A DNA stretch of 32,000 nt from Halomicrobium mukohataei DSM 12286. GTDB lineage: Archaea; Halobacteriota; Halobacteria; Halobacteriales; Haloarculaceae. A program made the translations under genes and the position numbers. The notes beneath the pieces were generated by a model, which worked only from the letters and a program-made list of their open reading frames with translations, was not told the DNA's origin and ran no database searches. The stretch's first letter is position 1; each line of letters starts with the position of its first letter. Shown one piece after another: positions 2,883 to 19,246 of this stretch. The stretch spans positions 450,001 to 482,000 of the forward strand of contig NC_013202.1 of the NCBI RefSeq assembly GCF_000023965.1, written 5' to 3'.

Positions 2883-3767
2883 TCAGTCCATGCGGAGCGC
2901 CACGCTCGCGGCGTCCCTGTTCAGGATTGTGTACAGGTCGTTCCCGTCGGCGTCTTGGATCGTGTCCCGGTGAGCGGCGTCTCCGCCGCTCCGCTCTTGG
3001 AGGACCATCTCATACCGCCCGATCACGGCGTCCGCGCCAGAGGCGTTGCGGTAGGAGCTCGATCGAGCCACGCCGTCCGTGTACGGGTAGTTGTTGTAGT
3101 TCGCGTCTGGGTTCGCGACTCCCTGTGCGTAGTGGTGCGGGCTGGATCCCGACTGTGCCATGCGGCAATCGAGAGCCACCTGTTTGATGGGGTTGTAGTC
3201 TATGGAGTCCGCCACGTGCCCGGCGACTCCGAAGATCATGTTCGCCTCGTGAGTGGCGGCGTCGTCGTAGTCCCACAGTTGCGTCACCTCCTCGAAGAAG
3301 ATCATGCCGTCGCCGTCGTTGCCGTCCGCCTCCTCTCTCTGGAAGTAGAGAGCGAACCCGGAGTCTACGTATTCCAACCAGTACGTCACGGCGTCTCCCT
3401 CTTGGATCCCGCCGCCGTCCGACTGGTGAGCCGTGATCTTACCCGTGGTCCCGTCGTTCCGGCCGATCTCCTTCAAACGATTGCCGGGATCGTTCGGGTA
3501 GCGATCGTTCCACGAGCTCGAACCGGTGTCCCAGTCCACGCCGTACTCGGGCGTGAGCCCGCGGTTATCTTGGTCCGTGTTCGGTCTGAACCGGATGTAC
3601 TCGTTGAACGGAGTGGCGATCACGAACCAGTCGTTCGTGGGAACTGAGGCGTCTCCGCCGCCGCTCGAAGTGTCCACCACGCTGTATCCGGTCATGCTCG
3701 TGACCTTATCTCTGAGTGCCGCCAGTGCTTTGCCCCACGTCGTCGCGATTGGTCCATCGAAAGTCAT
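2883..3767 (-). CDS. Hypothetical structural-type protein (provirus)
   Basis: 294-aa acidic ORF rich in Asp/Asn/Gly/Tyr/Trp. It is tightly packed, 2 nt after the upstream stop and 6 nt before the downstream start. I recognise no motif. Confidence 0.65.
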   Translation of the reverse strand: MTFDGPIATTWGKALAALRDKVTSMTGYSVVDTSSGGGDASVPTNDWFVIATPFNEYIRFRPNTDQDNRGLTPEYGVDWDTGSSSWNDRYPNDPGNRLKEIGRNDGTTGKITAHQSDGGGIQEGDAVTYWLEYVDSGFALYFQREEADGNDGDGMIFFEEVTQLWDYDDAATHEANMIFGVAGHVADSIDYNPIKQVALDCRMAQSGSSPHHYAQGVANPDANYNNYPYTDGVARSSSYRNASGADAVIGRYEMVLQERSGGDAAHRDTIQDADGNDLYTILNRDAASVALRMD

Positions 3768-7448: not shown

Positions 7449-8020
7449 GCGACCACCTCGGTCAGCGACTCGATCGCGTCGACGGTCTCGTCGGTCGGCT
7501 CTCCGAGCAGGTCCTCCATCGCTCGCTGGTCGTCTAACTCAACGACGGCCTGCTCGAACCGAGCGAGCGAGACGCCCCAGTGTCCCTGGACGTGCTTGTC
7601 GGCCAGCAGCCGGTCGTCGTACCCGTCGAGTCCGTCCTGCTGGTGGCGCACTGTGTCGGCCCACCGAGCGACCTGCCCCTCCCACTCGCCCCGGTCCATC
7701 TCCGCGTAGGTGAGGAGAGTCTGCGGGTCGTCGGTCTCGATGTCGTCGGGCAGGCAGTTGGACAGCCACACTTCGATCATCGACGGGCCGCCGGGGACCT
7801 TCGCCGCGATCACGTCGCAGAGTTCATCGACGCGGCTCTCGATGTCGAGCGGGTCGGTCTCCGGTTCCATGCCGGCCGTCTCCATCACGTCGATGTACGA
7901 CTCTCTCGGCCGGTTCTCCATCTCTGCCAGTACCCGAGCGGCTGCCCGGATCTTCTCGGAGTCGTGAGGGTTGTCTAGCTGCTTCTTCATCTCGCGCATC
8001 TCGTTGAGCTTCTGCATCAT
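7445..8020 (-). CDS. Hypothetical acidic protein (provirus)
   Basis: 191-aa ORF (MMQKLNEMREMKKQLDNPHD...) with ATGA overlaps at both ends. I recognise no motif. Confidence 0.65.
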   Translation of the reverse strand: MMQKLNEMREMKKQLDNPHDSEKIRAAARVLAEMENRPRESYIDVMETAGMEPETDPLDIESRVDELCDVIAAKVPGGPSMIEVWLSNCLPDDIETDDPQTLLTYAEMDRGEWEGQVARWADTVRHQQDGLDGYDDRLLADKHVQGHWGVSLARFEQAVVELDDQRAMEDLLGEPTDETVDAIESLTEVVA

Positions 8021-8622
8021 AGGCTGAGGTCCATGTCTTCCGCGATGTCACTGATAGCGTCCTGTGCCATGTCGGTCTCCGTGAGGATCACGACGAGCGC
8101 CAGCCCGGCCGTTCCGACGGCCACCTTCGTGCCGGGCGAGGTGTCGGCCCCAATACCGGCATCTTGTAGCCACTCATCCACCGCGTCGTCCATCTCGACC
8201 GGCGGTGATCGGGCCAGATCCTCGATGGCCTCGGCGTCCTTGCCGGTCTCGCCGTCGCTCGCCTCGGCGATCTCCCCGAGGAGGAGCGCCAGCATGGTGA
8301 CGTACTGCTCGCCCCATGATTCGCCGTCTGGTAGCGCCGGCTGTGTGGCCGTCTCGTCGGTTTCTTCGCTGTCGGGGTCGTCGGTGCCTGTCGTCTCGTC
8401 GCCGCTGTCGTCGCCGCCCTCGTCGTCGGGAGCGGCCTGCTCCTCAATCGCCTCCGTGTCGAGTTCGAGACCGTCGAGGTCGGCCTGCTCGTCCGGCTCG
8501 ATGTCCGGCAGGTCCTCCTCGGTCTCCTCTCCCTGCTCGTCGGCCGGCTCCTCCTCGGTCTCCTCTCCCTGCTCGTCGGCCGGCTCCTCCTCGACCGGCT
8601 CCTCGGTCTCGCTCACAGTCAT
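8017..8622 (-). CDS. Highly acidic protein with a C-terminal-region TM segment (provirus)
   Basis: Internal ATG at 8622 of track ORF 8017..9225 (MTVSETEEPVEEEPADEQGEETEE...). The TM segment is VAVGTAGLALVVIL. It has an ATGA overlap with 8619..9200 and contains a 36-bp tandem duplication. Confidence 0.65.
   Translation of the reverse strand: MTVSETEEPVEEEPADEQGEETEEEPADEQGEETEEDLPDIEPDEQADLDGLELDTEAIEEQAAPDDEGGDDSGDETTGTDDPDSEETDETATQPALPDGESWGEQYVTMLALLLGEIAEASDGETGKDAEAIEDLARSPPVEMDDAVDEWLQDAGIGADTSPGTKVAVGTAGLALVVILTETDMAQDAISDIAEDMDLSL
8515..8586. repeat. Perfect 36-bp tandem duplication inside a CDS
   Basis: ctcctcggtctcctctccctgctcgtcggccggctc occurs at 8515-8550 and again at 8551-8586, with a 7-nt start of a third copy. 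It encodes a duplicated 12-aa acidic block (protein segment EEEPADEQGEETEEEPADEQGEETEE). Confidence 0.9.
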
Positions 8623-9200
8623 ACCCACCCCTCGCCCTCCTCGACCGGGTCGGCGTCCGATACCTCGCTCTCGACTTCCATCGGCTCCTGGTCGTCGTCG
8701 CTGTCGGTGCCGGTCGCCAGCAGGATAGCCAGCCCGAGGGCCAGCGTAGCACCGAGGATTACCAGCCCTGACGGGCCAGATTGGCCGGTATCTGGCTGGC
8801 CTCCCGATTGCTGATTCTGGCCGTCTGACTGGTTCTCCTCGGTGTTCTCGCTGCCCTCCTCGCTGGTCTGTTGCTCGATCTGTTGCTCGTACTCCTCGGT
8901 CTGGTCCATTTCTGGCTGGTCTTTCTCGCTGGTTTCCTCGGTCTCTGGTTGCTCTCTGGCCGGATCTTGCTGGCCTTCGTCCTCGTCTCCCTCGGTAGCA
9001 GCCGCTCCACCCGTTCCGGGCGGGTCGTCGTCGCTGCTGTCCTCGTTGGTCTCGTCGTCCTGCTGGCCCTCGACGGCGGCCCGGATCTTGGGCCAGTCGT
9101 GCTTTCCGTCGGACCCCATCGAGTTGCTGTGAGACCGGAGACCGGCCAGACTGTCGCCGCTGTAGTCGCACCCGTCGATCGGGCAAGTGTAGTTGCTCAT
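8619..9200 (-). CDS. Membrane protein with an N-terminal Cys/His zinc-finger-like motif and an acidic Gln/Glu-rich linker (provirus)
   Basis: 193-aa ORF. The motif YTCPIDGCDYSGDSLAGLRSH...H is C2H2-like with atypical His spacing. The TM segment is LVILGATLALGLAILLA. It has ATGA overlaps at both ends. Confidence 0.65.
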   Translation of the reverse strand: MSNYTCPIDGCDYSGDSLAGLRSHSNSMGSDGKHDWPKIRAAVEGQQDDETNEDSSDDDPPGTGGAAATEGDEDEGQQDPAREQPETEETSEKDQPEMDQTEEYEQQIEQQTSEEGSENTEENQSDGQNQQSGGQPDTGQSGPSGLVILGATLALGLAILLATGTDSDDDQEPMEVESEVSDADPVEEGEGWV

Positions 9201-10657
9201 GTGTAGTTGAGAATGCCGCCCTCATCGTCTAACGCGGCCTTCTTCGCCTCTGCGGCCGCTACCTGTACCGTCTCGTTTGTCGATTTGAAACCGATCTCGT
9301 CGGGGTCGATCAGGTCGACGTACTCCATCGCGACGGCCTCCGCTTCGGGAGCGTCGGGGAGTCCGCTCGCTACGTCGATCGTCCCCGGCGGGCCGTGGAG
9401 CCTCACCACCCAGTCGTTGCGGGCCGCTCGGTCGATAGCGACCTTGTACGGCCCCGCTGTCCACGTCGTCCCCTCCCGAGTCCAGGCCGACGGGAGTGGC
9501 CCGACCGCGTCGTCCTCGTTCTCCCCGGTGAGCGTCACCTGCCGATCCTCTCCGGGGGTCTCCTCGGGCGACACGCCTGCCGAGAGTTGGGCCTGGCCTT
9601 CGCTGGCGAACGTGTCGGCCGTCTCGATCACCTCGGCCGGCTCGTCGTCCCGATCGTCGCCGCGCAGGTCGTCGGGCCGCCGGTCAGCCGGATCGGGCCG
9701 GGTCGGCTCTCGCTCTGCGAGCTCGGAGTCGGCGAGTTCGTCCCGATCGCCGCCGGGTTCCTGGGCGAAGTGATCCAGCGTCTTGACGATCGGGACCGAG
9801 CCGGGCATCGAGTCGAGCGAGTCGAGCAGGGTATGGAGCCGGTTCGGGTGTAGCTCCGGCTGGCCGTTGGCCTCCCTGATCCGGTTGATGGCCCGCCACG
9901 ACTGCCGGGCGTCGATCACTGCCTGTCGGGCGTCCGCTATCGCCGTTTCGAGGTCGCCCACGGCGTTCTTGTAGCCGCCCCAGGAACGCCGGAGCGCACC
10001 GGCCACCTCGGGCCGTAGCTCCATCTCCGGGTACTCGTCGCCGCCGACCGTGACGAGTTCCGTCTGCTCGCCGTCGTCGGCGTGATCCTCGTCGAGGAAC
10101 TGCTGCACTTCCTCCTCGTCGTAGCCGCAGGTCTCGGTGAGGAACTCGCAGGCTTCGGGATCACCCGCCTCGCAGTGGCCCCGTGCGTGGTCGCATCGCT
10201 CGCCCTTTGCCGTCTGGGCAGCGTCAGCGGCCTTCTCGTCGGCACTCTCCTGCTCGTCGGTGCGCTTGCCGCTCTCGCGGCTGGCGTCGGCCATCACCTC
10301 GCGGTGTTCGTCGACAGTCAGAGTGCCGTCGTAGTAGCTCACCCAGTCCTCGACGCCCTCGGACCGAGCGATCCCCTTGACCGCCTTCGCGTGGGGTACC
10401 GAGGCGCGTGCCTTCCCGAAGTCGATCCGGTCGCGCTCGCCGTCACTGAGCGGCACCTGACCGGGACCGTCGCTCCCTTCGCCCCGACTGTCCTCGGCTT
10501 CGAGTCGTTCGGCGTCGAGCACATGGTCGGGCGTGTCGGCGTCGGAGTAGGCGACGGTCTTCAGCCGACGGTCGTCGTCGGTACACAGATACTCCTCGTG
10601 TCGGTCTCTCGCGGCGTCTGCCGCGTCTTTACTCCCGTACTCGATACGTGTCGTCAC
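9197..10657 (-). CDS. Large acidic hypothetical protein, first gene of the long operon (provirus)
   Basis: 486-aa ORF with a GTG start. It has a Cys/His cluster (CDHARGHCEAGDPEACEFLTETC) and long acidic, apparently disordered stretches. I recognise no catalytic motif. Confidence 0.65.
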   Translation of the reverse strand: MTTRIEYGSKDAADAARDRHEEYLCTDDDRRLKTVAYSDADTPDHVLDAERLEAEDSRGEGSDGPGQVPLSDGERDRIDFGKARASVPHAKAVKGIARSEGVEDWVSYYDGTLTVDEHREVMADASRESGKRTDEQESADEKAADAAQTAKGERCDHARGHCEAGDPEACEFLTETCGYDEEEVQQFLDEDHADDGEQTELVTVGGDEYPEMELRPEVAGALRRSWGGYKNAVGDLETAIADARQAVIDARQSWRAINRIREANGQPELHPNRLHTLLDSLDSMPGSVPIVKTLDHFAQEPGGDRDELADSELAEREPTRPDPADRRPDDLRGDDRDDEPAEVIETADTFASEGQAQLSAGVSPEETPGEDRQVTLTGENEDDAVGPLPSAWTREGTTWTAGPYKVAIDRAARNDWVVRLHGPPGTIDVASGLPDAPEAEAVAMEYVDLIDPDEIGFKSTNETVQVAAAEAKKAALDDEGGILNYT

Positions 10658-10700: not shown

Positions 10701-10708
10701 GTATAAAA
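10701..10708 (-). promoter_or_regulatory. Candidate TATA box for the 9197..10657 operon
   Basis: The minus strand reads TTTTATAC in the A/T-richer gap at 10658-10758, about 45 nt upstream of the GTG start. Confidence 0.35.
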
Positions 10709-10758: not shown

Positions 10759-11385
10759 CTACCGGTCAGTAGCCGTGTCTACAGCACAGTCGTTTCCGCC
10801 GTCCGTAGCCGCAACTAAGGTCGTCTGTTCGGTCACATCGGGCACTTCCCCCGCTACTGGTGCTCCGCCACCTTTTCGATCGACGGAGAGCGCGATATCG
10901 TACCCGGACCAGTTCGGGGTGCGGAAGTAGTAGGTAGCGACCCGTTCCCAGCCGTCCCAGCCGTCGAGTCCGTCGGAGTTGTAGCCGAACGTCAGGACGT
11001 GGCCGCCGGGCGCGGTAACGTTCGCAATCGCACCTCTGGCCTCCCACTTCCGGCCGACGTGGTTCCCGTCGTAGTGTCGTTCAGCCATCTCAGCGGTGTA
11101 CGGCGGGTCGTAGACGACGGTGTCGAAGTGGTCGCGATCGAAGTGGTCGTCAATCTCACGAACGTCGAAGTGGGTGTCAACATCCCGATCCTCGTCGATG
11201 TCGTTCCGGGTGATCGGGCCGTCGTGGTCGAGGCTCGTCTTTCCGGCGCAGGCGTTCAAAACCTCCCCAGCGAGCCACTTTTCGACGATCGCCCGAATCT
11301 GTGGAACCTCGAATGTCCACGGCGAGAGGTGGACCGGCTCGCCGTCCTCGGTCTTCCCGCCGATCTTGATTCGCTCGACCGTCAC
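10759..11385 (-). CDS. SAM-dependent methyltransferase with a DPPY motif (DNA N6A/N4C-type or RsmD-like)
   Basis: Motif I-like VLNACAGKTS is followed about 50 aa later by TVVYDPPYT (motif IV). I prefer the GTG at 11385 (VTVERIKIGG) as the start because it overlaps the upstream small ORF stop as GTGA. The track uses TTG at 11436. Confidence 0.75.
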   Translation of the reverse strand: MTVERIKIGGKTEDGEPVHLSPWTFEVPQIRAIVEKWLAGEVLNACAGKTSLDHDGPITRNDIDEDRDVDTHFDVREIDDHFDRDHFDTVVYDPPYTAEMAERHYDGNHVGRKWEARGAIANVTAPGGHVLTFGYNSDGLDGWDGWERVATYYFRTPNWSGYDIALSVDRKGGGAPVAGEVPDVTEQTTLVAATDGGNDCAVDTATDR

Positions 11386-11537
11386 GCGGACCACCTCCGA
11401 CCGCAGGTTTCGCAGACCCAGCAATCGCCATCCCAACCGTGGAGAGTGTCACTGACGCAACGGTGGCAGTAGCGGAGCTGCGGCGACTCATCGGACGGGT
11501 GTTGTGGCGCTTGCCCGATCCGGTCAGTACTGCTCAT
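11382..11537 (-). CDS. Small zinc-ribbon protein, 51 aa
   Basis: Below the track cutoff. Translation is MSSTDRIGQAPQHPSDESPQLRYCHRCVSDTLHGWDGDCWVCETCGRRWSA. It has an ATGA overlap with the ASCH gene stop and a GTGA overlap with the methyltransferase start. Confidence 0.5.
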   Translation of the reverse strand: MSSTDRIGQAPQHPSDESPQLRYCHRCVSDTLHGWDGDCWVCETCGRRWSA

Positions 11538-11884
11538 GTACTGACCACCTCGAAAACGATGACTTCGACGTTTGTCGCGGGGAGAATCGTTTTTTGATAG
11601 TGGCTGTTGACACCATCGACCACCTCGTGGACAGTACTTGAACCGTAGTTTGCACCGAACAGGTCGAGTAGATCAGGGACTTCGACTGCCAGCACACTCG
11701 CTGTTCGCTTGATTTTGAGGATGGCGAACTCTAACCCGTCCTGTGTCGTCGCAGGCACATAGCTTCCAACAGCAGGTAACTCCATGTCGTATCGAACGGT
11801 CGCTGTCTTCTCCCCACCCAATATCTCACCGGCGTACGCCTCATCGAACTCCAGTTGTTCGGTACTCTCACTCACGGGAACCAC
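11534..11884 (-). CDS. ASCH (PUA-like) domain protein
   Basis: 116-aa ORF. The N-terminal signature FDEAYAGEILGGEKTATVRYD resembles the ASCH G-x-K-x-x-E/T-x-R pattern. It is visibly more A/T-rich than its surroundings, with many A/T-ending codons. Confidence 0.55.
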   Translation of the reverse strand: MVPVSESTEQLEFDEAYAGEILGGEKTATVRYDMELPAVGSYVPATTQDGLEFAILKIKRTASVLAVEVPDLLDLFGANYGSSTVHEVVDGVNSHYQKTILPATNVEVIVFEVVST

Positions 11885-11999
11885 CCCAGTCGCGGGCGTC
11901 TCGTCGGGTGAGGTGCGTCTGGCAGAGGTCAGTGATCGCGCCGACCCGGCGGCGAGTGTCGTCGTCCTCGATCTCGTCGAGCAGGTCGTCGCGGTTCAT
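11868..11999 (-). CDS. Small acidic hypothetical protein, 43 aa
   Basis: Below the track cutoff. Translation is MNRDDLLDEIEDDDTRRRVGAITDLCQTHLTRRDARDWGGSRE. It has an ATGA overlap with the stop of 11996..12397, and nearly all codons end in G or C. Confidence 0.4.
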   Translation of the reverse strand: MNRDDLLDEIEDDDTRRRVGAITDLCQTHLTRRDARDWGGSRE

Positions 12000-12397
12000 G
12001 ACTCCCACCCCATGAGTTGGTACGACGTGTCTCCGTAGACGTTGTTCTGGCGTCGGAGGTACCCGCGCTTGTGGAGCTTCCGGAGCACCTGCGTCCGGAT
12101 TTCGCTCTTTGGGATGTTCAGGACCGACGCCAGCAGCGTCAGAGCGACACTGCCCCGGACGTAGCCCTCGGGACTGGCGTGCTCACACAGCCGCTTGTAG
12201 GCGGTGCCCAGTCGGTCGTCCTGCGGTGGGGCGAGCGGCGTAGTGTTGTCGTGCTCGGTGTCGCAGGTCTGGGCCATGAGGGTCCGAAGTGCCTCGCTCC
12301 GGCTGCCATACTGGGACTCCTCAACCCAGCTATCGAAGGCGTCCACGAGATCGTCGTCGGCGCTGAAGCTGACTGACGCCCCGCCAGCCGTCTGCAT
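11996..12397 (-). CDS. Transcriptional regulator with an N-terminal ribbon-helix-helix and a C-terminal winged-helix-like domain
   Basis: I prefer the ATG at 12397 (MQTAGGASVSFSADDDLVDAFDSWVEESQYGSRSEALRTLMAQ = RHH pattern). The C-terminal segment ALTLLASVLNIPKSEIRTQVLRKLHKRGYLRRQ is wHTH-like. Confidence 0.65.
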   Translation of the reverse strand: MQTAGGASVSFSADDDLVDAFDSWVEESQYGSRSEALRTLMAQTCDTEHDNTTPLAPPQDDRLGTAYKRLCEHASPEGYVRGSVALTLLASVLNIPKSEIRTQVLRKLHKRGYLRRQNNVYGDTSYQLMGWES

Positions 12398-12412
12398 CAC
12401 CACGACCGACCA

Positions 12413-12444
12413 CCTCGATTAATAGATATCGAGGGGTGATTAAT
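12413..12444 (-). promoter_or_regulatory. Candidate promoter/operator: an inverted repeat flanking a TATA-like box, plus a GATTAAT direct repeat
   Basis: CCTCGAT (12413-12419) and ATCGAGG (12428-12434) form a 7-bp inverted repeat. On the minus strand, TATTAAT (12418-12424) lies about 24 nt upstream of the ATG at 12397. GATTAAT occurs at 12417-12423 and 12438-12444, 21 bp apart. Confidence 0.45.
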
Positions 12445-12536: not shown

Positions 12537-12680
12537 TCATCGGCGGACCTCCCAGAAGCAGTCCGTACACGTTTCCTCGCCGTCGACGTAGGTACACTCG
12601 CCGACGTTGCCGCAGGTACAGCGTCCCTCGAACCAGATTCGGCGGTCAGAGGGTGCTGGTGTCTGCTCGTGGGTCGACAT
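12537..12680 (-). CDS. Small zinc-ribbon protein, 47 aa
   Basis: Below the track cutoff. Translation is MSTHEQTPAPSDRRIWFEGRCTCGNVGECTYVDGEETCTDCFWEVRR. The ATG at 12680 directly follows the TAG stop (12683..12681) of the SWIM/HTH gene. Confidence 0.5.
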   Translation of the reverse strand: MSTHEQTPAPSDRRIWFEGRCTCGNVGECTYVDGEETCTDCFWEVRR

Positions 12681-13235
12681 CTACAGGTCACCCCCGAGTT
12701 TTTCGCGGGCAGAAGCCAGCAGGTTCCCGATCGTGCCGGGCGATCGGTCGGTTCGGCGGGCGAAGGGGCGAACGCCCGCGTCGGCTACGTCACAGTGCAG
12801 GAACGCGTCAAGTTCGGCAGGAGAAAGGTCGTCAAGTGGTCGTGATGGTGGGTCGAAGCGGAGCCATGCTGGTGGCTCTGGGTAGTCTCTCCCGGTGTGA
12901 AGGTGCGAGACGACGATCCGACCGCGTACCCACTGCCACCAGAGAGAGGCGACGTGAGCGCACCAGCCGTCGTTGAAGCGGTGTCCTCGACAGTCGCAGT
13001 CGGCCAGTAGCGTCTGGCCTTGGAGTGCCCACGTCACTCTGTGAGAGCCTTCACCGCCGCTGAGACGAACCATGCGCTCGGCGTCGTTGATGGGGCCGCC
13101 CTGGTCCACCTCGGTCTGTGCGCGTTCCCACGGCGTCGAGCTGGTCAGTTGCTCCGGCATGGAGAAGCTCGACGGCCCGCCGATCTCGTCGGGCAGGTCG
13201 TCGCTGGGTTGCCAGCCGGGGCTGGCACGACTCAC
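12681..13235 (-). CDS. SWIM zinc-finger protein with a C-terminal HTH (sigma-70 region 4 / LuxR-like)
   Basis: CDCRGHRFNDGWCAHV matches the SWIM pattern CxCx(n)CxH. The C-terminal segment LSPAELDAFLHCDVADAGVRPFARRTDRSPGTIGNLLASAREKL is HTH-like. The start is GTG at 13235, with an alternative ATG at 13160. Confidence 0.65.
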   Translation of the reverse strand: MSRASPGWQPSDDLPDEIGGPSSFSMPEQLTSSTPWERAQTEVDQGGPINDAERMVRLSGGEGSHRVTWALQGQTLLADCDCRGHRFNDGWCAHVASLWWQWVRGRIVVSHLHTGRDYPEPPAWLRFDPPSRPLDDLSPAELDAFLHCDVADAGVRPFARRTDRSPGTIGNLLASAREKLGGDL

Positions 13236-13411
13236 GCCAGACCACCCCCGTTTTCCTTCGCGAGAGTGCCGGACAGCGGCGGGGTGAATCCCGCGGTGTA
13301 AGTAATTCGCTCAGAGAGGGCTGTTCTTTCCGAACAGTCGAGAGCGAAAAGGCTGTTTGAGGTGTGTGAATCCGGCGAAAAACGGACCTTCGAGATGATC
13401 CGATATAGCGA

Positions 13412-13483
13412 TGGACTCGCCGGGATTTGAACCCGGGGCCTCTTCCTTGCGAAGGAAGCGATCTGCCACTGATCTACGAGCCC
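13412..13483 (-). tRNA. tRNA-Ala (anticodon CGC)
   Basis: The reverse complement is GGGCTCGTAGATCAGTGGCAGATCGCTTCCTTCGCAAGGAAGAGGCCCCGGGTTCAAATCCCGGCGAGTCCA. A 7-bp acceptor stem carries the G3:U70 alanine identity pair. The anticodon loop is TTCGCAA, the T-arm is CCGGG/TTCAAAT/CCCGG, the discriminator is A, and CCA is not encoded. Confidence 0.93.
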
Positions 13484-17033: not shown

Positions 17034-17386
17034 CGACCGCTCACCTCCTTCTGGATGCTACCGCTCATTGTGCAAGCACACGAACTGCGTGCTATAAGAA
17101 ACCGTCCGTTCGCCGTCGACAGCCAGCGTCCCACCCGGCCAGGGAGAGTCGTGCCGACGGTGAGACAGACGACCGCGATATCGATCTGACGGACAGTGCT
17201 GCCAGAATCCGCCGATTCCGGACCGAACACTTGAGGCTTTTGGCAGAACATTCATCATGCTTCTTGGAAACCCTTCACAGGGATGGCGCGAACGACGACC
17301 ACGGAGAGACGGATCCGAAGTCACGGGCGGGGAGGGAACGGAGACGAATCGACACCACGCGGCCGGCGGCTACGGGAGACAGTGCG

Positions 17387-19246
17387 ATGACGACGGACGA
17401 CCTCCGGCGGCGGGTCGAGCGACTGGAGGCGATGGTCGCGGCGGCGGACGACGGGCCGGAGGGTGAGGACGGACTGACGCGCCGGACGGTACTGAAGGGG
17501 CTGGGACTGGCCGGCGTCGGCAGCTACGCCGTGGGGAAGGCACGAGCAGATCCACAGGGACAGCTCGGGACCGACACGGATCCGGTCGCGACCGTCTACG
17601 CCCAGCAGCTCCACGGCGGTCTGACGGGCAACACGGCGGTGAGTTCGCTGCTGGGGCCGGGACTGGGGATCGACAGCGGCTCGCTGTCGGCCGACGTGAG
17701 CGGCGCGACGAGTACGGGTTCCGGCACCGACATCTACACCGGGACGACCGACGGCGACCTGCAGTTCCGATCGCTCGTCGGAGGCACGAACGTCTCGCTG
17801 TCGAGTGCCAGCGGAGCGGTCACGATCGACGCGACGGCCGGCTCGTCGGTGTGGAGCGATCCGGACGCGGACGACCTCCTCGAACCGACCAGCTCGTACA
17901 GAGGGATCGATCTGAGTGGCGTCAGCAATCCGCGGGTCGTGACGCCCTGGATCGGCACCACGACGGCGACGGCCTTCGAGGCCTTCGTCGGCACCACCCG
18001 CGTCGCCCGGTTCACACCGACCGGAACCGACGGAAACGCCGAGACGGCCGCGGGAAACGTCCTGCTGGGCCAGTACGCACAGATCGGTGACGGGGCGACC
18101 GGCGTCGCGGTCGGCGGCGGCGGTAGTCCGACCAACAGTCACGAGAACGTCGCCTACGACAACTACGGGACGATCAGCGGCGGCCAGAACAACACGGTCG
18201 GGAGCGACGACGGCGATCCGGTGACGGCGGCCCACGCGACGATCGGCGGGGGCTACAGCAACACCGCTTCGAGCGTGTACGCGACGATCGCCGGAGGAAC
18301 GGCAAACACCGCGTCTGCCAAATCCGTGGCCGTCGGTGGCGGTAACGGCAACACCAGTTCGGGCAACTACGCGGCCGTCGCGGGTGGCTACTCCAACAGT
18401 GCGCGCAGCCGGTACGGGACGATCGGTGGCGGGTCGACGAACACCGCGTCGGGCCAGCACGCGACGGTCGGCGGCGGGAACAGCAACACGGCCGGCGGCG
18501 ACCAGTCGACCGTCGGCGGCGGGCAGAACAACAGCGCCACGGGACCGGACGCGGCGGTTCCCGGCGGCCAGAGCAACACGGCCGCTGGGAGCCACTCGCT
18601 GGCGGCCGGCCGTCGCGCGGCGGCCAACGACGCCGGGGCGTTCGTCTGGGCGGACAGTCAGGACGCCGACTTCGCGTCCGACGCCGACTACAACGGCTCC
18701 GGCGTGACCGGTAACGACACGTTCCACGTCAGGGCGCAAAACGGTGCTCGCATCGTCAACGGGGCCGGAACGACCTACATTCCGAGCGGGTCGACCGGGT
18801 GGACGGCGACGTCGACCAGAGCGGCGAAGACGAACTTCCAGCCGATCGATCCCGACAGCGTCCTCGACGGCGTCCGCTCGCTGGACGTGGCTACCTGGGA
18901 GTACAAGACCAGAGACGGCGAGGCCGCTGGAGTCGAGCACATGGGTCCGACGGCCGAAGCGTTCGACGACGCCTTCGGTCTCGGAGAGAGCCAACGCCAC
19001 ATCAACTCCATCAACGCCGACGGCGTCGCCCTGGCGGCGATCCAGGGACTCGCGGACCGGGCCGACGAGCTGGCGGCCGAACTCGAACGGAAAGACGAAC
19101 GCGTCGGCGAGCTCGAAGACCGGCTCGCGGAACGAGACGAGCGAGTCGACGAGCTGGCGGCCGAACTCGAACGGAAAGACGAACGCATCGACGAACTGGA
19201 GTCGCGACTGGACGACCTCGAAACGCTCGTACAACAGGGTGAGTGA
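17387..19246 (+). CDS. Secreted (Tat-signal) repeat protein with YadA/Hep_Hag-like Gly-rich repeats and a C-terminal tail-fibre intramolecular-chaperone (peptidase S74-like) domain plus a coiled coil
   Basis: I prefer the ATG at 17387 (MTTDDLRRR...). The twin-arginine motif is LTRRTVLKGLGLAGVGS. About 8 repeats of roughly 14 aa have the form GG-x-(S/N)NTA-x-G-x-x-(A/S)-(T/A)-(I/V). The segment STRAAKTNFQPID...VATWEYK...HMGPTAEAF...INADGVALAAIQGL matches the S74 pattern, and the C-terminal coiled coil is ELAAELERKDER... Confidence 0.75.
   Translation: MTTDDLRRRVERLEAMVAAADDGPEGEDGLTRRTVLKGLGLAGVGSYAVGKARADPQGQLGTDTDPVATVYAQQLHGGLTGNTAVSSLLGPGLGIDSGSLSADVSGATSTGSGTDIYTGTTDGDLQFRSLVGGTNVSLSSASGAVTIDATAGSSVWSDPDADDLLEPTSSYRGIDLSGVSNPRVVTPWIGTTTATAFEAFVGTTRVARFTPTGTDGNAETAAGNVLLGQYAQIGDGATGVAVGGGGSPTNSHENVAYDNYGTISGGQNNTVGSDDGDPVTAAHATIGGGYSNTASSVYATIAGGTANTASAKSVAVGGGNGNTSSGNYAAVAGGYSNSARSRYGTIGGGSTNTASGQHATVGGGNSNTAGGDQSTVGGGQNNSATGPDAAVPGGQSNTAAGSHSLAAGRRAAANDAGAFVWADSQDADFASDADYNGSGVTGNDTFHVRAQNGARIVNGAGTTYIPSGSTGWTATSTRAAKTNFQPIDPDSVLDGVRSLDVATWEYKTRDGEAAGVEHMGPTAEAFDDAFGLGESQRHINSINADGVALAAIQGLADRADELAAELERKDERVGELEDRLAERDERVDELAAELERKDERIDELESRLDDLETLVQQGE
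19063..19186. repeat. 40-bp perfect direct repeat, two copies 84 bp apart, inside the coiled-coil coding region
   Basis: cgacgagctggcggccgaactcgaacggaaagacgaacgc occurs at 19063-19102 and 19147-19186. It encodes DELAAELERKDER twice. Confidence 0.9.

Follow-up and report, generated by a model that had tools for sequence, protein, structure and literature searches.

The window analysed here is a 32,000-nucleotide (nt) stretch of Halomicrobium mukohataei DSM 12286 (contig NC_013202.1, positions 450,001 to 482,000), and the subject is a cassette of small, overlapping genes on its minus strand. With a probability of roughly 60%, this cassette closes an early operon of five translationally coupled genes in a temperate, SNJ1-like provirus, and its accessory genes, each exchangeable on its own, form a mosaic that includes a DNA methyltransferase (MTase), a zinc-ribbon leader gene and a recently acquired ASCH protein of the YqfB type. 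In window coordinates, and in their order from 5′ to 3′, the five genes are as follows (aa, amino acids; ORF, open reading frame; SAM, S-adenosylmethionine).

11996–12403, minus strand: regulator with ribbon-helix-helix (RHH) and winged helix-turn-helix (wHTH) features, first in the chain
11868–11999, minus strand: 43-aa ORF with no assigned function
11534–11875, minus strand: YqfB-type ASCH protein, 113 aa
11382–11537, minus strand: 51-aa zinc ribbon (CxxC-x14-CxxC), conserved leader gene
10759–11385, minus strand: 208-aa minimal DPPY SAM-dependent MTase, predicted to be an orphan DNA amino-MTase

Together these genes form a coupled chain from 10759 to 12403. An earlier reading of this DNA, referred to below as the original prediction, had described the last four of them and three overlaps between them, and all are present with exact coordinates: the 43-aa ORF overlaps the ASCH gene by GTGAGTGA (11875–11868, read from the sequence), the ASCH gene overlaps the zinc ribbon by ATGA (11537–11534), and the zinc ribbon overlaps the MTase by GTGA (11385–11382). 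The one gene missed, at the upstream end, was that of the RHH/wHTH protein, whose stop overlaps the start of the 43-aa ORF as ATGA (11999–11996). A GGAGGTGG-like Shine-Dalgarno motif lies 5–8 nt before all five starts, reading GAGGTGGTC, GGGGTGGGAG, GGGGTGGTT, GAGGTGGTC and GGAGGTGGTC in chain order, and the positions of these motifs favour GTG 11875 over GTG 11884 as the ASCH start and GTG 11385 over TTG 11436 as the MTase start, while backing ATG 11999 for the 43-aa ORF. The motifs thus lend independent support to the chosen starts and to what appears to be genuine translational coupling. Since overlaps of 4 nt are the commonest kind in prokaryotic operons, the coupling is real yet unremarkable.

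The viral setting proposed for the cassette is borne out by its surroundings. Over a stretch running from about 13235 to about 2300 or beyond, the minus strand resembles Natrinema virus SNJ1 (Simuloviridae) with the SNJ1 gene order kept, and the homologues comprise a gp7/gp9-like SWIM protein (51%/33% identity to SNJ1), VP2 (48% over 267 aa), VP4 (32%), the packaging ATPase (41%), VP6 (28%), the capsid proteins PB7 (38%) and PB2 (34%), PB1 (31%) and VP1 (30%). Judged by this synteny of an ATPase, two capsid proteins and other structural proteins, the element is an SNJ1-like provirus of the Simuloviridae. The cassette sits at the end of the early/regulatory region, directly upstream of the structural module, between two conserved genes.

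12681–13235, minus strand: SWIM/helix-turn-helix (HTH) early protein resembling SNJ1 gp7 and gp9 (by tblastn to both), conserved anchor of the early region
9197–10657, minus strand: SNJ1 VP2-like structural protein, first structural gene and downstream boundary of the cassette

The SWIM protein joins gp7-like and gp9-like segments and has a weak SWIM zinc-finger match. At the other boundary, a gap of 101 nt with a TTTTATA box inside it (10701–10707) separates the MTase from the VP2-like gene. This gene, orf486, was at first taken for a replication protein and was ruled out as such, being the SNJ1 VP2 homologue.

That the accessory genes travel separately is indicated by how they are distributed. 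A hidden Markov model (HMM) of the ASCH subfamily, made from 152 members found in a search of 1.84 billion representative proteins (249 matches at E ≤ 1e-3), was run over all six frames of every fetched locus, an MTase HMM was run on the six other ASCH loci, and loci fetched later were searched by tblastn with the same result. The ASCH protein was absent from all 89 other MTase-bearing loci (0/89, about 35 of them haloarchaeal), the MTase from all six other ASCH loci (0/6), and both the ASCH protein and the small MTase from the four other zinc-ribbon loci (0/4). Moreover, tblastn of the 43-aa ORF, ASCH, zinc-ribbon and RHH proteins against 86 MTase loci gave no matches. The original prediction had proposed that ASCH, zinc ribbon and MTase form a module, and on this co-occurrence check the proposal fails. 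Two sister proviruses, syntenic with the window element and SNJ1-like, tell the same story, in that they keep the anchors and the MTase and possess no ASCH, zinc ribbon or 43-aa ORF. One of them (L094; fetched loci are cited by such handles where they must be told apart) has a SWIM protein (53% identity), a 96-aa ORF, the MTase (89% identity) and an RHH/wHTH-like gene. The other (L108) has a SWIM protein (63%), a 100-aa ORF, the MTase (81%), a cytosine-C5 (C5) MTase-like gene and a VP2-like gene, with the ATPase and capsid genes further on. Around other close MTase homologues (L002, L091, L092) the neighbours differ again. The YqfB-type ASCH gene and the 43-aa ORF are add-ons specific to the window element. 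In Salinarchaeum laminariae, ASCH and MTase genes are both present, about 14 kb apart within a cluster of integrated elements.

The S. laminariae region (CP096270.1, L003/L095, about 2.61–2.64 Mb) is itself a hot spot of tandem integrations, in which several integrated elements succeed one another over some 30 kb, starting with a pleolipovirus-like provirus (HRPV-type spike, VP3) that carries the small MTase, followed by integrase fragments and then by an ASCH element with its own integrase.

What does recur in the cassette is the zinc-ribbon gene ahead of a DNA MTase, a narrower link than the modification and anti-restriction module first suggested, and one that genomic context supports. The ribbon's ligands C24, C27, C42 and C45 are invariant in five sequences, giving both knuckles, and its only Pfam match is a sub-threshold one to Zn_Ribbon_YjdM (E = 0.013). 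Four relatives with 66–94% aa identity occur in viral and metagenomic contigs of 1–57 kb (L104–L107); identity at the DNA level, 82–90%, is confined to 11529–11377 of the window, which is the gene plus the next start codon, and there is no similarity on either side. The conserved 3′ end of the gene, CGG AGG TGG TCn GC(G/T) TGA, encodes R-R-W-S-A-stop and at the same time holds a GGAGGTGG ribosome-binding site and the GTG or TTG start of the next gene.

11391–11398, minus strand: GGAGGTGG ribosome-binding site of the MTase, inside the zinc-ribbon C-terminus (codons R-R-W)

The same CGGAGGTGGTCnGC(G/T)TGA junction recurs in L104–L107 before differing downstream genes. Whereas the window has the small DPPY MTase immediately after the ribbon, L104 has a D12-class Dam (E. 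coli Dam 2g1p, E = 2e-9), L106 a Dam of the PF05869 type that is 42% identical (E = 4e-37) to the Dam portion of a fusion protein in L013 (described below), and L105 and L107 small CxxC ORFs. Directly upstream of the ribbon, L104 carries a C5 MTase (M.HaeIII, E = 6e-26), and in L105 the gene one position further upstream resembles it in the motif I region, by eye only and with no search made. In this way the last codons of the ribbon gene couple translation of the MTase to that of the ribbon, and the junctions mark the gene as a conserved leader that enforces co-translation of a swappable next gene, in most cases a DNA MTase. Since DNA MTases of three different classes follow it in viruses, the ribbon is probably a regulator or DNA-binding helper of this methylation slot, and may thus regulate or assist methylation.

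The most serious competitor, though clearly the less probable one, is that the ribbon has no functional tie to methylation and is a backbone gene bordering a recombination hot spot of swapped accessory genes, which are often MTases. Homology ends exactly at the gene borders, as cassette exchange would give, the next gene in L105 and L107 is a non-MTase, and CxxC proteins are plentiful in haloviruses, flanking dam, for example, in the Hardycor1 annotation (PMC7911831). Two further points tell against the proposed tie: the association of this ribbon family with MTases is drawn from five loci, and small CxxC proteins make up about 9–12% of the crudely called genes in halovirus early regions. Unrelated zinc-ribbon ORFs do overlap the starts of MTase homologues in L002, L004, L008, L024, L025 and L092/93, and for these ribbons chance adjacency is possible, since CxxC proteins are common in such regions; the enrichment of zinc-ribbon ORFs beside MTase homologues was counted with a crude gene caller based on GC content at third codon positions (GC3), which misses small genes, against a background of 9–12% that is higher in early regions. 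A conserved ribbon family ahead of three DNA MTase classes is harder to dismiss as chance than these unrelated ribbons. A DNA MTase of one of three unrelated classes lies within two genes of the ribbon in 4/5 loci and immediately downstream in 3/5, a ribbon is fused to the MTase in the L014–L021 subfamily, and the ribbon's 3′ end supplies the Shine-Dalgarno motif and start of the next gene, forcing co-expression. A leader with a role in methylation is accordingly the reading kept here.

The MTase is the lineage-conserved part of the cassette, and the original domain calls (ASCH, zinc ribbon, and a DPPY SAM-MTase with motif I ahead of motif IV) hold. Its motif I had been placed about 50 aa before DPPY, and the two, at aa 42–51 and 93–96, are indeed 51 residues apart.

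11233–11262, minus strand: motif I, VLNACAGKTS, a non-canonical SAM-binding loop
11098–11109, minus strand: motif IV, DPPY, with D93, P94 and P95 invariant in 39 family members and Y or F at 96

The motif I loop sits at the expected place and reads LNACAGKT, unlike the canonical D/E-x-F-x-G-x-G. In the 39-member alignment L43, N44, C46, A47 and G48 are invariant and A45, K49 and T50 are conserved in at least 90%; W23-T-F, R60-N-D (end of strand 2, motif II), D74-V (motif III) and G127-G are also invariant or nearly so. The protein matches PHROG 11619 at E = 2.2e-75 (residues 2–175 on profile positions 2–178 of 186), a family whose name, 'DNA methyltransferase', is annotation only, and it shares 42% identity with HRPV-12 gp13, a betapleolipovirus protein annotated as an AdoMet-MTase/DNA methyltransferase. 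A database search returned 88 homologues, none with a precomputed Pfam domain, and the only named source among them is the haloarchaeon Halobellus rubicundus, the others coming from metagenome assemblies. The window protein itself has no significant match in Pfam or NCBIfam and no Pfam family at E ≤ 0.1; it thus falls outside the curated DNA MTase families PF01555 (N6_N4_Mtase), PF02086 (D12) and PF05869 (Dam), and across the 39 members the only Pfam matches, all sub-threshold, are to N6-adenineMlase, MTS and Cons_hypoth95.

The SAM-binding fold on which the MTase call depended is present by both AlphaFold2 (AF2) modelling and Foldseek comparison. The AF2 model, built from the 39-member alignment, is Rossmann-type with alternating strand-helix topology (predicted local distance difference test, pLDDT, 78.6; predicted template modelling score, pTM, 0.76); its core ends at about aa 175, and residues 175–208 are disordered (pLDDT < 50). 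Neither a Pfam search nor the model revealed any extra domain, so that a target-recognition domain (TRD) is lacking in the window MTase. Foldseek found 64 PDB matches at E ≤ 1e-3, almost all of the 50 listed being SAM-dependent MTases, with probability 1.0 to many class I MTases. In a viral structure library the close matches (template modelling, TM, score 0.7–0.8) are unnamed viral proteins of about 190 aa, and the more distant ones include a Haloferax tailed virus 1 'RNA MTase' and giant-virus N4-cytosine DNA MTases. A sequence-only PDB search gave noise (an antibody chain), and a profile search gave weak RNA-MTase matches around motif IV. Modelled folds would by themselves leave the substrate unsettled. 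The family was found only in viruses, proviruses and plasmids, no nuclease domain was found in the operon, and a PADLOC defence-system scan gave one marginal match only (mad2, E = 0.0098); with no nuclease nearby and no defence system matched, the enzyme is taken to be an orphan, virus-type MTase.

Among its relatives, the 488-aa proteins of L014–L021 (e.g., L014 5959–7425) are very alike across several haloarchaeal genera and a Halorarius plasmid, and their N-terminal domain is 38–41% identical to the window MTase over the matched part. Each has an active small-MTase domain (DPPF), repeats it in degenerate form (DLPS) and ends in a CxxC-x14-CxxC ribbon.

Whether the target is DNA or RNA had been left undeduced in the original prediction. 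Fold evidence still does not decide, whereas DNA is now favoured by the domains to which the family is fused and by its gene neighbours. Halobaculum gomorrense (L013) has the MTase domain joined in one protein with a phage Dam domain (PF05869, E = 1.5e-21). Two genes upstream of the small MTase, L092 carries a C5 cytosine DNA MTase (PF00145, E = 1.9e-36), and the MTase stop of the sister provirus L108 is overlapped on its downstream side by a C5-MTase-like gene (M.HhaI, E = 1e-4). A Lactococcus plasmid encodes a 28%-identical domain (BLASTP E = 4e-14, DPPY intact) as the N-terminal part of a 728-aa multi-domain MTase, which has as neighbours a restriction endonuclease of the MvaI/BcnI family (E = 3e-48) and an HTH controller (C-protein). 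Finally, the slot behind the same zinc-ribbon gene holds a D12-class or PF05869-type Dam in other viruses. Because of the Dam fusion, the C5 neighbours, the relative embedded in a restriction–modification (R-M) system, the shared Dam slot and the confinement of the family to mobile elements, the window enzyme is probably a DNA amino-MTase, acting on N6-adenine or N4-cytosine, between which DPPY does not discriminate. C5-MTase motifs of PCQ/ENV type were also read by eye upstream of the MTase in L003 and L028, had no Pfam or PDB support, and were not used.

A quite different and rather unlikely view is that the protein is an RNA MTase of RsmD/Trm11/METTL5 type, making N2-methylguanosine (m2G) or N6-methyladenosine, and that together with the ASCH protein, as a deacetylase of N4-acetylcytidine (ac4C), it remodels host tRNA or rRNA modification during infection. 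Several observations weigh on that side and against a DNA enzyme. RNA MTases (RlmL, aTrm11, METTL5, MnmM, RsmD-like HI0767) supply both the closest solved folds and the weak sequence matches, the nearest solved structures among them being MnmM, HI0767, TrmN and aTrm11 (TM 0.42–0.52, 12–18% identity); sub-threshold Pfam matches to MTS and Cons_hypoth95 point to RNA, and with N6-adenineMlase they are not DNA-specific; Haloferax tailed virus 1 has a protein of similar structure that bears the annotation 'RNA MTase'; and tRNA ac4C is deacetylated by ASCH proteins. Motif I (NACAGKT) is non-canonical, no recognisable TRD accompanies it, and the function assigned to the family is a predicted one. The RNA-MTase matches are nevertheless weak (TM about 0.45–0.5, 12–18% identity, sequence E 0.05–0.1) and centred on a generic DPPF motif, and the enzyme has no THUMP, PUA or other RNA-binding domain. 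Membership of the RsmD/Trm11-type m2G enzymes is not borne out, as Cons_hypoth95 is matched, below threshold, in 5/39 members, TM scores are 0.42–0.51, no THUMP-like extra domain is present, and the homologues are all in mobile elements. Against an RNA enzyme there also stand the phage Dam fusion, the repeated adjacency of C5 MTases, the slot held in common with D12 and PF05869 Dam, and the bacterial relative embedded in an R-M system. On the preferred account, the TRD-less DPPY core of about 175 aa most likely methylates DNA; it would mark the viral genome and, in a lysogen, probably the host genome too, either to escape restriction or to set the element apart from competing elements.

Beyond the core, the disordered C-terminus of the MTase carries a short motif.

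10795–10830, minus strand: C-terminal MTase tail motif, EQTTLVAATDGG

The pattern EQxxL(x0-3)[TS]DGG is found in the tail of the window MTase, of the D12-class Dam (L104, from 4951) and of the PF05869-type Dam (L106, from 4666). It also occurs twice in the L013 MTase–Dam fusion (from 5920 and 6505), in L092 (from 5398), at the N-terminus of a zinc-ribbon ORF upstream of the L008 MTase (from 5696), and in L087 (from 542), where a 235-aa protein encoded close to the ASCH gene contains it. The nine matches to EQxxL..TDGG compare with 0.07 expected from residue shuffles, and TDGG alone gives 28 against 4.3. By blastn the tails have no similarity at the DNA level, so that the likeness lies at the protein level, and a literature search on the TDGG motif found nothing relevant. 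It is conceivable that the tail is a docking peptide. A bolder, frankly speculative extension would combine the TRD-less MTase core, a zinc ribbon acting in trans and an EQxxL-x0-3-TDGG docking peptide into a 'plug-and-play' system of haloarchaeal viruses. The core would then need help to find its DNA target, and catalytic domains from three or more unrelated classes of DNA MTase (small DPPY, D12 Dam, PF05869 Dam) would be swapped while the partner, a zinc ribbon or a replisome component such as PCNA, is kept.

The ASCH protein is of the YqfB type, and Pfam, profile, Foldseek and octapeptide evidence agree on this. PF04266 is matched at E = 7.5e-7 (30.2 bits against a cut-off of 21.2 bits, model positions 1–102 of 103), and a profile of 42 subfamily members matches E. 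coli YqfB in the PDB (9KYF, 1TE7; E = 1.4e-7). With the AF2 model (pLDDT 87.7) as query, Foldseek places YqfB at the top (TM 0.71/0.79, root-mean-square deviation 2.8 Å), and the top 18 PDB matches are all ASCH-type; the model thus indicates a PUA-like beta-barrel.

11792–11815, minus strand: ASCH octapeptide G21-E-K23-T-A-T26-V-R28 (GxKxxTxR), read from the sequence

In a 16-member alignment T26 and R28 are invariant and K23 nearly so. An octapeptide of the 'GK[T/S]R' type has been reported as characteristic of YqfB-type amidohydrolases, with the Lys and the Thr/Glu essential, and 19 of 19 ASCH proteins assayed in the same work stripped ac4C from tRNA (bioRxiv 10.64898/2026.02.27.708502). One point that counts against this activity concerns Glu74, the third catalytic residue of YqfB: the profile alignment puts E72/E74 of YqfB near 'GA(E)Y', where the window protein has N76 and most relatives have E, in a loop whose alignment is unreliable. 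The gene has a GC content of 0.53 and GC3 of 0.59, against 0.62–0.68 and 0.71–0.84 for its neighbours, which suggests recent horizontal acquisition from a source of lower GC. Most likely, then, the protein is an amidohydrolase or deacetylase of ac4C (or of another N4-acyl-cytosine) that would act, independently of the MTase, on nucleosides or on host tRNA or other host RNA. A role as a reader of modified DNA, for which archaeal type I R-M neighbourhoods offer precedent (PMC7641849), is a minority possibility. Searches of phage records with the ASCH protein found nothing. Relatives were located in a His1-like spindle-virus contig with a protein-primed DNA polymerase (L097), in an integrative element (L095) and in unclassified virus-like contigs (L087–L089, L096); with the L097 copy, the subfamily crosses virus families (spindle-shaped, SNJ1-like, integrative elements). 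In L097, the ASCH gene (3368–3715) lies three genes upstream of the protein-primed family B DNA polymerase, and the contig encodes a His1-type capsid protein.

With these properties in hand, the idea behind the original prediction looks improbable, namely that the MTase writes a DNA or RNA mark, the PUA-like ASCH protein reads it or removes a base modification, and the zinc ribbon binds nucleic acid, all three serving as one anti-restriction or modification system. The three genes are translationally coupled in one operon, and such tight coupling of ASCH to ribbon and MTase would also suit a functional link, which counts against a mosaic of independent genes. Standalone archaeal ASCH proteins with type I R-M systems and one ASCH-HsdS fusion have been published (PMC7641849), a subfamily member (P0129) is fused to a phage zinc-finger domain, and in L087 the ASCH gene is followed by two zinc-ribbon ORFs. 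Against this stand the zero counts outside the window in all three sets of loci, the sister proviruses with an MTase and no ASCH, and the 14 kb between the two genes in S. laminariae; moreover, the ASCH protein bears the catalytic K/T octapeptide of amidohydrolases and not a reader signature, and its deviant GC suggests recent insertion. The mosaic reading is thus retained. Least credible of all is that the 'MTase' lacks catalytic activity or does something other than methylate, as its aberrant glycine loop (NACAGKT in place of D/E-x-F-x-G-x-G), its lack of a matching Pfam family and its missing TRD might suggest, for that loop is invariant over 39 diverged members, as are RND, DV and DPP[YF], which indicates purifying selection on the SAM-binding and catalytic site, and what decay looks like is exemplified by DLPS in the second copy of the L014-type proteins.

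The first two genes of the chain have less to say of themselves. The regulator is recognised by sub-threshold Pfam matches to RHH_1 and HTH_27, by NikR-type RHH matches and by phrog_22505 (E = 1.5e-65); its true start may be ATG 12397 rather than GTG 12403, and a search with the protein against phage records gave no match. Upstream of it, two copies of ATTAATC lie 20 nt apart at 12417–12444, the first inside the palindrome GATTAATC, and an A/T-rich, TATA-like TATCTATTAAT, situated about 25 nt ahead of ATG 12397, is flanked or overlapped by them. This region may be the operator and promoter of the cassette operon, with a leaderless transcript beginning at ATG 12397. The 43-aa ORF has a GC3 of 0.82 in frame, with the Shine-Dalgarno-like GGGGTGGGAG upstream, and it exists as a called 43-aa protein in public collections; no homologue occurs in any fetched locus, so that it was seen in this element only. 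It had been singled out as acidic, and its isoelectric point (pI) is indeed 4.7, but this is no distinction, the neighbouring proteins all having a pI of 4.2–5.8. An acidic proteome is the haloarchaeal norm.

As for the wider element, the provirus lies 3′ of a tRNA gene.

13412–13483, minus strand: tRNA-Ala(cgc), by ARAGORN, the likely integration target

On the far side of this tRNA are host genes for S10 and EF-1alpha (translated N-termini read), EF-2 and histidine kinases (Pfam). Within the window there is no integrase domain in the ORFs tested, no SNJ1 RepA homologue and no tRNA-derived direct or att repeat; the left end of the provirus probably lies past position 1, and either its replication and integration genes are apparently located beyond the window or the element is defective, the stretches concerned being 1–2300 and 13236–13411. 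No phage record was matched by the whole element in a megablast search. After the SWIM gene comes a 47-aa cysteine-rich ORF (CTCG...C...CTDC, 12537–12680), and three of the nine early-region proteins, the 51-aa ribbon included, are cysteine-rich and putatively metal-binding. In the structural module, a 402-aa ORF (8017–9225), whose C-terminal part resembles SNJ1 VP4, contains two tandem 36-nt copies at 8503–8574 that are 89% identical, with further degenerate copies, and the repeat they encode is acidic. Among the host genes, a 671-aa ORF (17231–19246) combines a coiled coil with a Peptidase_S74 (endosialidase chaperone) domain (E = 4e-8), which phage tail fibres typically carry; the ORF could be left over from another virus or encode a surface protein of the host.

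Several consequences follow for further work. The three-protein modification module does not hold up, and effort need not go there. The MTase family is widespread, restricted to mobile elements and outside Pfam, and is thus a candidate source of unexplained N6-methyladenine and N4-methylcytosine motifs in haloarchaeal methylomes, as well as of virus restriction escape. The zinc-ribbon leader marks a slot in which DNA MTase classes are exchanged among haloviruses, giving a handle on the evolution of the viral methylation repertoire. The recurrence of YqfB-type ASCH genes in the early regions of haloarchaeal viruses of several unrelated types is a hint of viral interference with host ac4C, and this links them to the work on ASCH proteins as ac4C erasers. 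What is new here is modest and lies in two things absent from the earlier claim: the zinc-ribbon/MTase slot, and the EQxxL..TDGG tail common to three unrelated MTase classes.

Each part of the cassette has a counterpart among known systems. SNJ1 (Yingchengvirus) has VP2, VP4, the ATPase, VP6, the capsid proteins, PB1, VP1 and gp7/gp9 in an order common to both elements, but it carries no MTase, ASCH or zinc ribbon of the window type, whereas the window element lacks a detectable RepA. E. coli YqfB, an ac4C amidohydrolase, is likewise a single-domain ASCH protein of about 105–115 aa with the Lys and Thr of GxKxxTxR; the window protein is about 20–23% identical to it, has an uncertain equivalent of Glu74 (N76 here) and a predicted activity, and its type is carried by archaeal viruses and mobile elements rather than being a cellular housekeeping gene. 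The ASCH and EVE proteins of archaeal type I R-M systems (Bell, Wolf & Koonin 2020, PMC7641849) similarly place a PUA-like ASCH protein beside an MTase in an archaeon. Those associations are conserved across genomes and involve HsdRMS, while here the pairing is found in one provirus only, with no restriction subunit and a YqfB-type ASCH protein that is presumably catalytic. Orphan DNA MTases of viruses (HRPV-12 gp13, HHTV-1 gp73, PHROG 11619, Hardycor1-type phage Dam) are, like the window enzyme, small DPP[YF] amino-MTases of the early region with no cognate nuclease nearby; the window enzyme differs in lying outside PF01555, PF02086 and PF05869, in its NACAGKT motif I and in having no TRD. 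Finally, the controller (C) proteins and small leader genes of R-M systems are also small nucleic-acid-binding proteins encoded just upstream of a DNA MTase and co-expressed with it. Unlike C proteins, the leader of the window cassette is a zinc ribbon and not an HTH protein, with a role that is predicted, and what follows it is an orphan MTase of one of three classes or, in some loci, a gene of another kind.

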